A stretch of 64,000 nt of DNA from assembly GCA_021773295.1 (NCBI GenBank), contig JAJFKI010000025.1:1965-65964 (forward strand), in the 5' to 3' direction. A program made the position numbers and the translations under genes. The notes beneath the pieces were generated by a model. The model was not told the origin of the DNA. It did not search any database and saw nothing but the letters and a program-made list of their open reading frames with translations. The first letter of the stretch is position 1. Each line of letters opens with the position of its first letter. Source of the DNA: Gammaproteobacteria bacterium (GTDB taxonomy: Bacteria > Pseudomonadota > Gammaproteobacteria > UBA1113). This document shows positions 30,656-47,070 of the stretch, one piece after another.

Positions 30656-32266
30656 ATGGCAAACGACACTCCAGGGAATAATAATCACCAAGCTAGGAAT
30701 CATGTGCTAGCCAGCCAGGCCGATTTAGATCCTAAAGATAGGCCCATTGTTGATTTGGTGGAATGGTGTCAGCAGCGGGGCAATATCGTGGCGCTGCAAA
30801 GCGGTTTGATTTTGACGACAGAGCCAACAGCGCGCGATGTACAAAATTGTAAAGCGTTGTTAGTGAACAAAGGTTATAAACCTGGCAAAGTGATGGAAGC
30901 CACGCCGCAATTGATTACCCTGATGCTCGCCAATGTTGCGGATGATGATGAAGCGCAACAACAAGTCGATGTTCAAGAAGATGAAATCTCCAGCCAACAA
31001 AAACGCTTGCGGATTTTAGTGCAAGAAGCTGTCGATGCTGATGTGTCGGATATTCATATCGAAGTGCGCCCGGAGGTTGCAAAAATTCGTTTTCGTAAAT
31101 TTGGTGAAATGTATTTGCACGCCGAGTGGTTCCCCCGCTTGGGTCGCGAGTTAGCCTCTGTAGCCTTTAATAAAGAAACCGATCATGCCACCGCACACTT
31201 TAACCCCTTAATTCCACAAGATGCATCCATGCCTTTGCAAGTTTATGGTTCAGACGTGCGTTTACGTTTGGCCAGTATGCCAGCTCATGGTGGTTTTGAT
31301 GTGGTGATGCGTATTTTAGGCGTGGGTGATGATACTAAAGTCGTGACCCTAGAAGATTTAGGCTATACGCCAGAGCAAGTGTATATTATCAAGCGTGCGG
31401 TACATATGCCTCATGGGGCTGTCTTATTATCAGGGCCAACAGGATCGGGTAAAACAACGACATTAGCCAGTTGTATGCAAATGGTAAAAAGCACGCGTAA
31501 AGTGTACACCATTGAAGATCCGGTGGAAAAAGTCGTGCCAACAGTGACGCAAGTGCCGGTGAATTCCGATAAAGACGACAGAAGTTTTGCGAATTTTGGC
31601 CGCGCTGCTTTGCGGATGGATCCAGACTACATCGTCCTGGGTGAAATGCGTGATGAAGACACCGCGAATGTGATGATTCGCGCGGCGATCACCGGTCACT
31701 TAGTGTTTTCAACGGTGCACACCAACTCTGCGCCGGGGATTATCACCCGTTTAATCGATATGGGTTTATCGCCCACTATGTTAAGTGATGCCAATGTCTT
31801 AGTGGCATTGATTTTCCAACGCTTAGTGGCAACCTTGTGTCCCCATTGCAATGTGCCTCTTAAAGATGCGCCTGCGCACAAAGAACATATGGAACGCTGG
31901 CACGCTGTCTTTGGCGATAACGTAGAATATATACGCGCCCGTGGCGGTTGTAAAAAGTGCAATAACATCGGTATTGGCGGCCGCTCTGTGGTAGCTGAAG
32001 TGATTTGGGTGGATGACACTGGCCGTGAATTCATTCAAAAAGTCGATACCCTAGGATGGCAAAAGTACCTACGTAACCAAGGCTGGCAATCTTATCGCGA
32101 CCGAACCTTAGAAACCGTTATCGAAGGCAAAGTCGATCCCTTCGACGCCGAAACCTTAGTGGGCGAAATCAGTATTCACTCTGCAGAGGCCGGCTTCGAC
32201 TACACCCGCATCCGCGAAGACATGGAAAATGAAATGGCCCGCGAAGCGAAGAAGCCCCCCCAATAA
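30656..32266 (+). CDS. type IV pilus / type II secretion family assembly ATPase (GspE/PilB/BfpD class)
   Basis: Walker A LSGPTGSGKTTT, Asp and His boxes, and a tetracysteine motif CPHC...CKKC are present. 536 aa with an N-terminal extension. Confidence 0.85.
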   Translation: MANDTPGNNNHQARNHVLASQADLDPKDRPIVDLVEWCQQRGNIVALQSGLILTTEPTARDVQNCKALLVNKGYKPGKVMEATPQLITLMLANVADDDEAQQQVDVQEDEISSQQKRLRILVQEAVDADVSDIHIEVRPEVAKIRFRKFGEMYLHAEWFPRLGRELASVAFNKETDHATAHFNPLIPQDASMPLQVYGSDVRLRLASMPAHGGFDVVMRILGVGDDTKVVTLEDLGYTPEQVYIIKRAVHMPHGAVLLSGPTGSGKTTTLASCMQMVKSTRKVYTIEDPVEKVVPTVTQVPVNSDKDDRSFANFGRAALRMDPDYIVLGEMRDEDTANVMIRAAITGHLVFSTVHTNSAPGIITRLIDMGLSPTMLSDANVLVALIFQRLVATLCPHCNVPLKDAPAHKEHMERWHAVFGDNVEYIRARGGCKKCNNIGIGGRSVVAEVIWVDDTGREFIQKVDTLGWQKYLRNQGWQSYRDRTLETVIEGKVDPFDAETLVGEISIHSAEAGFDYTRIREDMENEMAREAKKPPQ

Positions 32267-32320
32267 TAAACCCTTAAGTTATTTGAACTAAATTTAATAT
32301 GATGTTGTTAATTTAAATGA

Positions 32321-32400
32321 CTATCCTAGAAACTGCAGTTAAACGCGAATCAAGGTGTTGCGCCAAAATTTGCGCTTTAACTGCCGTTTCTAGGATTATT
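32321..32400. repeat. long imperfect inverted repeat / hairpin of the TTAACTGCCGTTTCTAGGATTAT family
   Basis: The arms ATCCTAGAAACTGCAGTTAAACGCG and CGCTTTAACTGCCGTTTCTAGGAT flank a ~25-nt loop. It lies between the ATPase and platform genes. Confidence 0.6.
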
Positions 32401-32499
32401 GGTTGAAGAGATTACATTCACTTAATCTTCTGTTATAGTTTTTGAGAGCATGATCCCATGGAACGGGGGAGGGCATCATGAGTATATCGAGGAAACAGT

Positions 32500-45548: not shown

Positions 45549-46781
45549 CTACAACCACCCAACAGGCACCTGAACAATTTTCTCAGTCAACCACCTAACT
45601 TCATCAGATTGATTAATCACCATACCAAAAGGCAAGTGATGCTCTTCCACAAAGCCTTTCAATGTTTGCAACTGACTGAGCTTAACCATTGAGCCATATT
45701 TAATTTCGATGGGTAACATACCAAAATAACCATCGAGAATTAAATCAATTTTTGCGCCTTTTCTAGTTCGATAATAATGAGCAGTCCAATTTGTTAGGGT
45801 CGTTGCTTCAAGCCCCTTAATGATTTCTTCAATGACGAATCCTTCGAAGGAGTAACCAACTGTAGGGTGGTGATATAGATCATCTAGGGAGTTAATTTTT
45901 AACAAAAAATGTAATAAACCAGTGTCACGAAGGTGACCTTTCGGCATTTTAATAACGGATTTAATAATGTTTTTTTCATAACTGGGTAATGAGCGCCAAA
46001 TAAATGTTCCATCTGCAATCGTTAAATATTCTCTAATACTGCCTTCACTGATTTCAATAGCTCGAGCTAAGTCAGAGCGGTTAACGATGGTGCCCGATAA
46101 TTTGCTCAGCATAGAAAGGAAGCGTTGATAAGCTCGTTTATTTAATTTTGGAAACAGCTGGGCAATATCACGATTAACGTATAGGTTTTGATAATTTTGC
46201 ATCCACAATTGATAGTAATCGTTACTCGTTTGTAAAATAGGTTCTGGATAGCCACCATGCAACCAAAAATTTTGTATTTGCTCAGTTGTTAGGGGTGCTT
46301 CATCAGTGACTACATTATTTTTATCAAGTTTTTTTTCAAAGAGTTGATAAAAAGGGCTGAGTGGTTTTTGATAAAATTCATTTGCTTTTAACGTTCCAAG
46401 CTCAACGATTGCTGCTCGGCCTGCTAAAGATTCAGAAGCGTGCTTCATCAATTCTGGGCTACTTGATCCTGTGATGATATATCGGCCTTTTTTTTCTCTT
46501 TGTTCATCAATGACTCCGCGTAACACATTAAACAACTGCGGGAAAATTTGTGCTTCATCGATAATGAGATCTTGAGGATGTTGCTTAAAGAAAAATTCTG
46601 TTTGTCCACTAATGATATCAAAATCACTAGGCTTTTCTAAATCAGTGTACTTCCAATGAGGGCATAATGTACGGCTTAAGGTGGTTTTACCCGCCTGCCG
46701 AACCCCTAAAATCACGACTATTGGGAATTTTTCCAATAGAAAAGTGATTTTATTAGCCATATTTCGATATAGTCCGTTCAT
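45549..46781 (-). CDS. AAA-family ATPase (DUF4143/AAA_14-type ATP-binding protein)
   Basis: Walker A GVRQAGKTTL and Walker B LIIDEAQ; the ~410 aa length is typical of this family. Both sides are flanked by MITE copies. Confidence 0.8.
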   Translation of the reverse strand: MNGLYRNMANKITFLLEKFPIVVILGVRQAGKTTLSRTLCPHWKYTDLEKPSDFDIISGQTEFFFKQHPQDLIIDEAQIFPQLFNVLRGVIDEQREKKGRYIITGSSSPELMKHASESLAGRAAIVELGTLKANEFYQKPLSPFYQLFEKKLDKNNVVTDEAPLTTEQIQNFWLHGGYPEPILQTSNDYYQLWMQNYQNLYVNRDIAQLFPKLNKRAYQRFLSMLSKLSGTIVNRSDLARAIEISEGSIREYLTIADGTFIWRSLPSYEKNIIKSVIKMPKGHLRDTGLLHFLLKINSLDDLYHHPTVGYSFEGFVIEEIIKGLEATTLTNWTAHYYRTRKGAKIDLILDGYFGMLPIEIKYGSMVKLSQLQTLKGFVEEHHLPFGMVINQSDEVRWLTEKIVQVPVGWL

Positions 46782-46863
46782 ATTCGTAGTTTATATACGA
46801 ATATGAGACTTTTCAAGCTGGAATTATGATATTAGGCTCGAAACGTCAATTTTCGAGGGGTAT

Positions 46864-47035
46864 ATACCCGTCACACTTCAAAATGCGAGATTTAGGCGAG
46901 TTGATTTTTGTTCCCTTGGAACCTTTGAAATTTGGCAATAGAATGGCTATTACCTGCATTTCAAAGCCTGCACGGGAACAAAAATCAACTCGCCTAAATC
47001 TTGCATTTTCATCTGTAATGGGTATATCAGTCATT
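46864..47035. mobile_element. MITE-like repeat, copy C, with ~52-bp terminal inverted repeats
   Basis: The left end ATACCCGTCACACTTCAAAATGCGAGATTTAGGCGAGTTGATTTTTGTTCCC is the inverted complement of the right end except for 10 subterminal nt. Confidence 0.75.
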
Positions 47036-47070
47036 TCAATCAAAGTAGTGTTGGTGTACAATCTGCTGCC

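Follow-up and report, generated by a model that had tools for sequence, protein, structure and literature searches.

A type IVb-class pilus operon, an AT-rich islet and a separate insertion around tRNA-Leu(CAA): probable composite origin of a 16.4-kb gammaproteobacterial region

Among described systems, the closest to the pilus locus considered here are the R64/IncI1 thin pilus (PilL–PilV) and the pil clusters of SPI-7, PAPI-1 and the IncF and IncI plasmids. In these, a PilN-family lipoprotein secretin is found together with PilS-type pilins, a GspE-family ATPase and a GspF-family platform protein, and in the plasmid clusters the local gene order is TcpQ/PilL-like protein, PilN, a bitopic protein of ~410–430 amino acids (aa), PilP. 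Pili of this PilN/PilS/PilP class are typical of IncI plasmids and of integrative and conjugative elements (ICEs); among the 2387 plasmid records in which PilN has a match, 1946 belong to conjugative plasmids. The same secretin family (best NCBIfam model, TIGR02520, scored under its cut-off), pilin type, ATPase and platform families, and local order recur at positions 30656–47070 (~16.4 kb) of a 64-kb stretch of gammaproteobacterial DNA, the whole of which we term ‘the window’ and whose numbering we use throughout. A reading made before any database was searched (the ‘sequence-only reading’) had taken this region, which abuts a gene for tRNA-Leu(CAA), for a probable degenerate genomic island that retained the pilus as cargo. 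We consider it probable, instead, that the region is a composite of three parts with different histories, and not one decayed mobile island. The first part (30656–40964) would be a vertically inherited pilus operon of the type IVb class, chromosomal and ending in a sixA-like gene (‘sixA’ below). The second (40965–45119) would be a lineage-specific, AT-rich islet of 4.15 kb placed between sixA and the 3' end of the tRNA. The third (45207–47070) would be a separate insertion across the tRNA, made up of a PDC-S01-type candidate defence ATPase gene between two copies of a dispersed miniature inverted-repeat transposable element (MITE). The tRNA-Leu(CAA) gene itself would be a core gene at its ancestral position. 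Lineage-specific, AT-rich and partly decayed DNA is thus limited to ~6 kb around the tRNA, and the pilus part accounts for ~10 kb. Genes were called from a listing of open reading frames (ORFs) with Pfam and NCBIfam scans, and tRNAs with ARAGORN and Rfam.

The evidence that carries this reading comes from related loci, which we label with L-numbers (L081, L082, L083, L085, L171, L175, etc.). They were found through homologs of a 411-aa protein of the pilus operon, ‘PilO-like’ by position, and nine genomic contexts of the pilus family were read. The nearest relatives that could be retrieved are uncultured Legionellales-like bacteria with 57–58% PilO-like identity; scans for QueA in genome and metagenome contig collections brought up no relative above 64% identity. 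The gene orders in these loci are as follows.

L081 (PilO-like identity 57–58%): platform protein, pilins, TcpQ-like protein, secretin, PilO-like protein, PilP, SixA-like protein, tRNA-Leu(CAA), queA-tgt-yajC-secD-secF
L082 (PilO-like identity 57%): hybrid kinase, ATPase and the following pilus genes to PilP, SpoIIE-type phosphatase, SixA-like protein, tRNA-Leu(CAA), queA
L083/L084 (PilO-like identity 52%): recO, pdxJ, hybrid kinase, pilus genes, SixA-like protein, then an ankyrin protein and unrelated genes

The left flank in the window reads recO, pdxJ, a 799-aa ORFan, a LetS-type kinase and the pilus genes. The interval from sixA to the tRNA is 27 bp in L081, 15 bp in L082 and 4,155 bp in the window, with identical tRNA orientation, and the interval from the tRNA to queA in L081 and L082 contains neither the ATPase gene nor any other insert. 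By tblastn, identities of the pilus proteins to L081 and L082 are 79% for the ATPase (L082 only), 70–71% for the platform protein, 60% for the secretin, 57% for the PilO-like protein and 49–50% for PilP; those of core proteins are 64% for the LetS-type kinase, 62–64% for QueA, 79% for Tgt, 67% for SecD and 61% for YajC. With L083 included, the figures become 79% (L082) and 77% (L083) for the ATPase, 69–71% for the platform protein and 60–69% for the secretin (L081–L083). The prepilins are 27–45% identical to pilins of the relatives. Because the pilus operon and sixA are syntenic in relatives, with identities in the range of the flanking core genes, they look ancestral at this locus, and not like cargo anchored at the tRNA. 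In this lineage, then, the pilus locus would be bounded on the left by recO–pdxJ and the BarA/LetS-type kinase and on the right by tRNA-Leu(CAA)–queA, and the hosts of the pilus family would be uncultured Legionellales-like bacteria.

Comparison of the window with these distant relatives as empty sites gives the complementary picture: 40965–45119 and 45207–47070 are missing from them, 30656–40964 is present and syntenic in L081–L083, and tblastn finds no homolog of the islet genes in the related loci. The supposition of a decayed island at the tRNA can be kept for the two missing stretches, and not for the syntenic, probably ancestral one. Signs of mobility are lacking as well. Pfam detects no integrase, relaxase or type IV secretion system (T4SS) domain in any sizeable ORF of the window, just as the sequence-only reading had noted; no tyrosine or serine recombinase was found at the tRNA-proximal end within the window; and none of the nine contexts of the pilus family contains conjugation or integration genes. 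A search for a direct repeat of the tRNA-Leu 3' end (the att core, ...GGTTCGAGTCCGACCTTCGGTACCA) had been proposed as a means of delimiting the island. Within the window, a 25-mer and an 18-mer from this end match only the tRNA itself at up to 3 mismatches, and blastn-short (word size 7) with the 3' half of the tRNA and the sequence downstream of it finds no att repeat. Synteny in relatives, no att repeat and core-like composition had been named in advance as the findings that would tell against an island. They hold for ~10.3 of the 16.4 kb, the comparison being with distant relatives (57–58% PilO-like identity), and so the pilus operon and sixA are not a remnant kept from an ICE of the SPI-7/PAPI-1 type at this tRNA. 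The lack of mobility genes and the secretin, at 25–30% identity to plasmid PilN, likewise count against that part of the sequence-only reading.

Base composition separates the parts further. The G+C contents (GC), and those of third codon positions (GC3), are:

Window background: GC 0.418; mean GC3 of 25 core genes, 0.420
Pilus block: GC 0.455; mean GC3 0.456 (sixA included)
Islet, 40965–45119: GC 0.361; mean GC3 0.292
Insert between the tRNA and queA: GC 0.376; GC3 0.322 (PDC-S01 gene alone)
Nine other ORFan or effector-like genes: mean GC3 0.348

No other 4-kb stretch of the window is as poor in GC as the islet (~2.6 standard deviations under the mean), or has so large a tetranucleotide distance. 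The GC3 of its genes, which ranges from 0.22 to 0.36, differs clearly from that of core genes (p = 2e-5) and not from that of the other ORFan or effector-like genes (p = 0.066), and we therefore take its composition to be the signature of the accessory gene class of this genome. Pilus block and islet deviate from the background in opposite directions. Of the compositional difference that the sequence-only reading expected from the core, the islet displays a clear one and the pilus block only a marginal one, with overlapping GC3 ranges (p = 0.033).

Several points weigh against a composite origin. The pilus cluster is, after all, slightly richer in GC than the core (0.455 versus 0.418, and in GC3 at the p-value just given), although this excess is due in part to pilins rich in Ala, Gly, Ser and Thr (GC at second codon positions, 0.45–0.48). 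The relatives are distant (~57–64% core identity), so that the age of the islet, and the choice between its insertion here and its deletion from L081 and L082, are argued from parsimony and composition. The pilus cluster occupies other chromosomal sites in more distant relatives, and an ancient transfer or relocation is possible. And the view is confined to 64 kb: an attR or an integrase could sit elsewhere following rearrangement.

The genes of the pilus operon, all on the plus strand, are:

30656–32266, +, pilus assembly ATPase of the GspE/PilB superfamily, equivalent to R64 PilQ (Pfam T2SSE, 2.3e-85)
32500–33564, +, inner-membrane platform protein of the GspF/PilC family, equivalent to R64 PilR (Pfam T2SSF, 1e-18)
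33579–34106, 34107–34643, 34640–35242 and 35251–35793, +, four tandem prepilins (PF08805, N_methyl)
36227–36823, +, TcpQ/PilL-like periplasmic protein (Pfam TcpQ, 8.4e-05; 23 bits, cut-off 27)
36820–38505, +, PilN-family type IVb secretin (TIGR02520, 3.1e-76; Pfam Secretin and Secretin_N_2)
38506–39741, +, 411-aa bitopic membrane protein in the PilO2 position, of no described family (31-member family)
39747–40457, +, PilP-family protein (TIGR03021, 35.9 bits, cut-off 34.65)
40470–40964, +, SixA-like histidine phosphatase, 164 aa, the terminal gene of the operon (Pfam His_Phos_1, 2.6e-11)

Taken together, these genes mark the cluster as a chromosomal and divergent branch within the type IVb class. 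Both the PilS-type pilin and the PilP that characterize the R64 PilL–V/PilN class are present above cut-off (PF08805, TIGR03021): the PilS N-terminal domain, PF08805, scores 22.9 and 40.6 bits in prepilins 1 and 2, against a cut-off of 22, and Pfam detects the N_methyl motif in three of the four prepilins. In prepilins 3 and 4 (34640–35793), the residue preceding the predicted cleavage site (position −1) appears to be Ala (KA|IGLIE and KA|FTLIE) in place of the usual Gly; in prepilins 1 and 2 it is Gly. The secretin matches TIGR02520 far ahead of other NCBIfam models, at 257 bits, under the curated cut-off of 287.65, and is probably a lipoprotein, judging from an LAGC lipobox. The TcpQ-like gene lies directly 5' of the secretin gene in the relatives and in plasmid type IVb pilus clusters too. 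Prepilin peptidase (PilU/A24), transglycosylase (PilT) and a PilV adhesin with shufflon were found neither in the cluster nor in the rest of the window. The product would most probably be an adhesive pilus, with its prepilin peptidase supplied from elsewhere.

The 411-aa protein is the most distinctive component. It has 31 full-length homologs (26–58% identity), none of which is annotated and one of which comes from a Legionellaceae metagenome-assembled genome; 14 residues are invariant in the 31-member family (alignment A1, P0001–P0031), and residues 187–213 form a central hydrophobic segment. The 30 members scanned have no Pfam or NCBIfam match, and the PDB holds no match to the family. As a PilO2 homolog the protein was tried and rejected: hhalign against plasmid PilO2 returns a probability of 0.8%, and the two agree only in position, length and the central transmembrane segment. 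The data point to a coherent pilus family, as yet uncharacterised, whose roughly 30 members all come from uncultured bacteria and which has a PilO-position protein of its own.

Two of the intergenic gaps of the operon (32323–32396 and 35810–35849) contain hairpins formed by the 20-nt motif TTAACTGCCGTTTCTAGGAT, a degenerate copy of which occurs at 42917–42936, right after the hipA remnant of the islet; neither the rest of the window nor the related loci retrieved contain further copies. The 434-bp gap that precedes the TcpQ-like gene contains, separately, an inverted repeat of 31 bp (35904–35998). The hairpins and the inverted repeat could be terminators, operators or REP-like (repetitive extragenic palindromic) elements.

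The second part of the region, the islet, extends exactly from the stop codon of sixA to the 3' end of tRNA-Leu, and its largest intergenic gap is 424 bp:

40965–45119, no strand, lineage-specific AT-rich islet, 4,155 bp
41123–41506, −, 127-aa ORFan, GC3 0.22, the minimum of the window (no Pfam or NCBIfam match)
41740–41949, −, divergent CsrA paralog, 69 aa (Pfam CsrA, 2.4e-21)
42374–42889, +, winged-helix regulator (HTH_27, MarR clan; Pfam HTH_27, 1.7e-13), divergent from csrA
42942–43530, −, hipA pseudogene, internally deleted (183-aa ORF; only the Couple_hipA domain detected)
43524–43892, −, hipB-type helix-turn-helix antitoxin gene, intact (HTH_31 and couple_hipB)
44081–45034, −, 317-aa strict ORFan (hydrophobic segments at residues 172–191 and 208–232)

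ORFs, Pfam and NCBIfam bear out the gene order given by the sequence-only reading, namely effector-like membrane protein, HipB/HipA-N, MarR-like regulator, CsrA, sixA and pilus cluster. The ‘effector-like membrane protein’ of that order is the 317-aa ORFan, which has itself as its only match among 1.84 billion representative proteins; it can be termed effector-like by analogy. The 127-aa ORFan has a faint, sub-threshold PADLOC match (E = 0.005).

The HipA-N remnant was correctly recognized, in that only the N-terminal domain is detected, and its origin can be refined. By tblastn against plasmids, the remnant is 48% identical to residues 1–179 of an annotated HipA of 440 aa, and a trace of residues ~410–437 persists in another frame. 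HipA has lost its kinase core (~residues 180–409) by internal deletion, then, and not by simple truncation. The PDB sequence search gave no match to the fragment. HipB is 35% identical to a HipB encoded beside a full-length HipA.

Non-core CsrA paralogs in Legionella are defined as ICE-associated by the type IVA secretion system (T4ASS) genes that immediately adjoin the csrA-like gene (PMC4471563). The CsrA of the islet covers 51 of the 53 profile positions of Pfam CsrA, scores at the curated NCBIfam cut-offs (71.7 versus 73 and 70.0 versus 70.1 bits), and has Leu2 and the conserved Arg of the REE motif. A homolog search gave 26 weak matches, the best non-self one at 58% identity. Identity to CsrA genes of Legionella plasmids, one of which adjoins F-type tra genes, is 40–47%. 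The sequence-only reading had likened this CsrA to the paralogs of Legionella ICEs; the adjoining T4ASS genes by which that class is defined are not present. The winged-helix regulator has distant matches only (32–39%), on alphaproteobacterial and betaproteobacterial megaplasmids.

Two small ORFs accompany csrA. One of 64 aa (41943–42137) was rejected as a gene for its odd composition and lack of a family match. The other, of 35 codons (41605–41712, −), lies between csrA and the 127-aa ORFan and would encode MMNLPFKFIVFGVPVSIILWGLIVISIQANSLSLY, a strongly hydrophobic sequence; the product may be a small membrane peptide, or the ORF may be no gene.

The tRNA and its right flank comprise the following.

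45120–45206, −, tRNA-Leu(CAA), the sole tRNA in the window (ARAGORN, Rfam)
45345–45511, no strand, MITE copy A, palindromic, ~170 nt
45549–46781, −, AAA_14/DUF4143 ATPase of the PDC-S01 type (Pfam AAA_14 and DUF4143; PADLOC)
46862–47027, no strand, MITE copy B (hairpin −91.4 kcal/mol, z = −12.9)
47071–48090, +, queA, the right anchor and start of the queA-tgt-yajC-secD-secF core block (Pfam Queuosine_synth, 3.4e-136)

Since the tRNA is on the minus strand, its 3' end (45120) points to lower coordinates and faces the stretch, as the sequence-only reading had it. An Rfam scan of the whole window finds nothing else. The gene is a common neighbour of queA: the two are adjacent in L081, L082, L002, L003 and L005, and widely in Gammaproteobacteria, Thiofilum included. 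The tRNA of the window has U72, in a G1–U72 pair, and five related loci have C72 (45120–45126, alignment A2); the window, L003 and L005 encode CCA, which L081, L082 and L002 do not.

The insert between the tRNA and queA measures 1,864 bp (45207–47070). Its ATPase matches the PADLOC candidate defence family PDC-S01 (PDLC04790) at 1.1e-86 over residues 4–409 of 410, and this full-length profile match makes it a candidate defence gene. In L086, a paralog-type ATPase gene with 26% identity follows the pilus cluster at a distance of ~4 kb. The two MITE copies reported around the ATPase gene are confirmed, and a third can be added at about 10034–10152, near 10.1 kb. With at least three copies in 64 kb, one of them elsewhere, the MITE is a dispersed genomic repeat and not specific to an island.

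Both flanks of the tRNA vary among lineages. In L175, the order is SpoIIE-type phosphatase, SixA-like protein, photolyase, tRNA-Leu(CAA) in the same orientation, and fragments of an ISNCY transposase. The 5' side of the tRNA thus has ISNCY fragments in L175, MITE/PDC-S01/MITE in the window and nothing in L081 and L082. Because both flanks carry different DNA in different lineages, the data suggest that the tRNA-Leu(CAA) locus is an insertion hot spot in this lineage more than the target of one element.

Among the alternatives to three separate histories, the one that survives best concerns the islet alone. It supposes the remnant of a single small integrative element, with the 3' end of tRNA-Leu(CAA) as attB and with integrase and attR later deleted, and we hold it possible but doubtful. 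The insert does start precisely at the 3' end of the tRNA and is AT-rich; its toxin–antitoxin (TA) module and regulator/CsrA pair are of kinds common on mobile elements; and U72, in place of the C72 of five relatives, could be a 3' end supplied by the element. But a lone base difference at position 72 is weak evidence, no integrase or fragment of one was found (the gaps being at most 424 bp), and no att repeat appears even when 3 mismatches in 18–25 nt are allowed. GC3, moreover, is heterogeneous within the islet (0.22–0.36), and the unrelated insertions on the other flank of the tRNA, and on the same flank in L175, point to a general hot spot.

An ancient domestication is improbable on present evidence. 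In this scheme the ancestor shared with L081–L083 gained the type IVb pilus operon and sixA horizontally, possibly at this very tRNA; they have been fixed since, and the islet is a later and unrelated arrival. The class of the pilus, mainly plasmid- or ICE-borne, is in its favour, as are the mild excess of GC over the core and the different sites that the cluster occupies in distant relatives. Members with PilO identities of 29–44% lie elsewhere on the chromosome, beside gyrB, proS or transporters of the major facilitator superfamily: at gyrB in L086, at proS in L171, and elsewhere in L085, L087 and L172. Over such distances, however, differing sites may reflect ordinary rearrangement; GC3 falls within the overlap with the core range; no lineage retains integration machinery or a trace of an att site; and vertical descent fits the present data equally.

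Scarcely tenable, finally, is a single degenerate conjugative island of the SPI-7/PAPI-1 or Legionella ICE type that integrated at tRNA-Leu, spans the whole 14.5–16.4 kb and kept its mating-pair pilus: the usual setting of this pilus class, the ICE association of Legionella non-core CsrA paralogs (PMC4471563), the adjacent tRNA and the TA remnant favour it, but it is contradicted by the empty-site arrangement of L081 and L082, where the pilus genes and sixA keep the same order and core flanks with tRNA-Leu directly abutting sixA, and also by pilus identities equal to those of core genes, a window free of att repeats, opposite composition shifts (pilus GC 0.455, islet GC 0.361), a secretin only 25–30% identical to plasmid PilN, and conjugation genes in 0 of 9 pilus-family contexts.

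We retain, then, the reading of three parts with separate histories, in which the islet would have arisen as foreign or accessory genes were gained stepwise, and decayed, at a site prone to insertion. With its dead hipBA, orphan CsrA paralog and ORFans, it is ordinary accessory DNA. The lesson for annotation is that a type IVb pilus cluster next to a tRNA should not be classed as a decayed ICE from gene content alone.

Apart from the region under study, the sizeable ORFs of the window (Pfam) include purL, rplS-trmD-rimM, ffh, lepA-lepB-rnc-era, recO-pdxJ, clpB and other core genes, interspersed with large ORFans and with ankyrin, Sel1 and patatin proteins. Such a mix is typical of Legionellales-like intracellular bacteria. 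Low GC3 is found in other ORFan or effector-like genes as well (4444–5955, 10286–15044 and 21125–23398). The 799-aa ORFan between pdxJ and the LetS-type kinase (25304–27703, GC3 0.31) has a charged, Ser/Ala-rich C-terminus; L083 has no gene at this position, and the ORFan is another lineage-specific insertion, away from any tRNA.

The ancestral part of the region has a feature of its own in the gene that ends it. In the window the SixA-like gene starts 12 bp after pilP, and such a gene terminates the pilus operon in six lineages, with four different right flanks: in the window (40470–40964), L081 (7657–8151), L082 (12862–13365), L083 (11966–12460), L085 (8494–8970) and L171 (12094–12603). It directly follows PilP in L081, L083, L085 and L171; in L082 a SpoIIE gene comes between. 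A SpoIIE/PP2C phosphatase gene stands just 5' of the SixA-like gene in L082 and in L175, where the truncated contig repeats the SpoIIE–SixA pair. The protein scores 51 bits against TIGR00249 (cut-off 74.5), its best PDB match is 2rfl (a putative SixA), and all six pilus-linked copies keep the catalytic RH and GHN motifs without change. Of its 435 homologs at E ≤ 1e-10, the closest is that of L175 (61%). Copies from Bacteroidota (Cyclobacteriaceae, Fulvivirga and Pedobacter) are 45–53% identical, comparable to the pilus-linked copies of L081–L083 (43–50%). A neighbour-joining tree of SixA-like proteins is unresolved and does not show the pilus-linked copies to be monophyletic. In the literature, we found no paper that ties SixA to type IV pili.

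On the other side of the operon, and transcribed divergently from it, is the left anchor:

27731–30493, −, BarA/LetS-type tripartite hybrid sensor kinase, 920 aa (NCBIfam BarA 682 bits, LetS 634 bits)

Both scores are under the equivalog cut-offs. In the same position, L082 has a 64%-identical ortholog of 918 aa and L083 a shorter hybrid kinase; wherever the contig extends far enough (the window, L082 and L083), a BarA/LetS-type or other hybrid kinase with a histidine phosphotransfer (HPt) domain lies divergently upstream. Because the linkage of sixA to the pilus genes recurs, and because the divergent kinase bears an HPt domain, the arrangement suggests a functional tie between SixA and the pilus, in which the HPt domain of the adjoining kinase may be a target of the SixA-like enzyme. 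We propose, tentatively, that a pilus operon of the Legionellales lineage with a terminal SixA, a divergent BarA/LetS kinase and its own substitute for PilO2 could represent an undescribed regulatory architecture, one in which an HPt phosphorelay (possibly that of the LetS virulence switch) would be coupled directly to piliation by dephosphorylation encoded in the operon itself.

Within 14 kb, the window also brings together the BarA/LetS-type kinase (27731–30493), the SixA-like candidate HPt phosphatase and the CsrA paralog (41740–41949), all components of a regulatory logic of the LetAS/Rsm/CsrA type. The presence of the CsrA paralog near the other two may be a coincidence, since it is missing from the related loci. 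The association of pilus, SixA and kinase is a modest new lead, and offers a testable idea that ties surface appendages to a transmissive-phase phosphorelay.

How, finally, does the locus compare with known systems, part by part? Like islets and hot spots linked to tRNAs elsewhere, the islet abuts a tRNA 3' end, is of atypical composition, is missing from relatives and carries decayed cargo of mobile type. It differs from them in that the window contains no integrase, direct repeat or mobility gene, and in that both flanks of the tRNA are variable, with content that depends on the lineage (photolyase, insertion-sequence fragments, MITE/PDC-S01).

The hipB–hipA order and the overlap of the two genes are those of HipBA type II TA modules, but the HipA Ser/Thr kinase catalytic domain is missing and, with the kinase core deleted, no toxin can be made. 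A three-gene HipBST system was considered and discarded, as no HipT-like kinase gene follows.

The CsrA paralog resembles those of Legionella ICEs and plasmids in its divergence, in Leu2 and the REE Arg, in its setting in AT-rich accessory DNA and in its 40–47% identity to the plasmid copies. It differs from the ICE class in its neighbours, an ORFan, a winged-helix regulator and the hipBA remnant in place of T4ASS genes, and its nearest homolog is just 58% identical. Nor do csrA and the winged-helix gene form an lvrRABC-like module: the locus on the Legionella lytica plasmid has no counterparts of the winged-helix regulator or of the neighbouring 127-aa ORFan.

SixA of Escherichia coli acts on the HPt domain of ArcB. 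The protein of the window is of the same size (164 aa) and of the His_Phos_1 fold family, has the catalytic RH...GHN, and has 2rfl as its best structural relative by sequence; it differs in scoring under the equivalog cut-off and in its gene being the last of a pilus operon, near a BarA/LetS-type kinase.

From the R64-type clusters with which we began, the pilus locus is set apart in several ways. R64-type clusters carry a prepilin peptidase, a lytic transglycosylase, a PilV adhesin and a shufflon, all of which the window cluster does without. Its secretin is under the family cut-off and 25–30% identical to plasmid PilN, and its PilO-position protein lacks detectable similarity to PilO2. The ATPase/platform/pilin block precedes the PilL–N–O–P block, where in the R64 type it follows. 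And the locus is chromosomal, syntenic among relatives and free of conjugation genes, and closes with a SixA-like gene.

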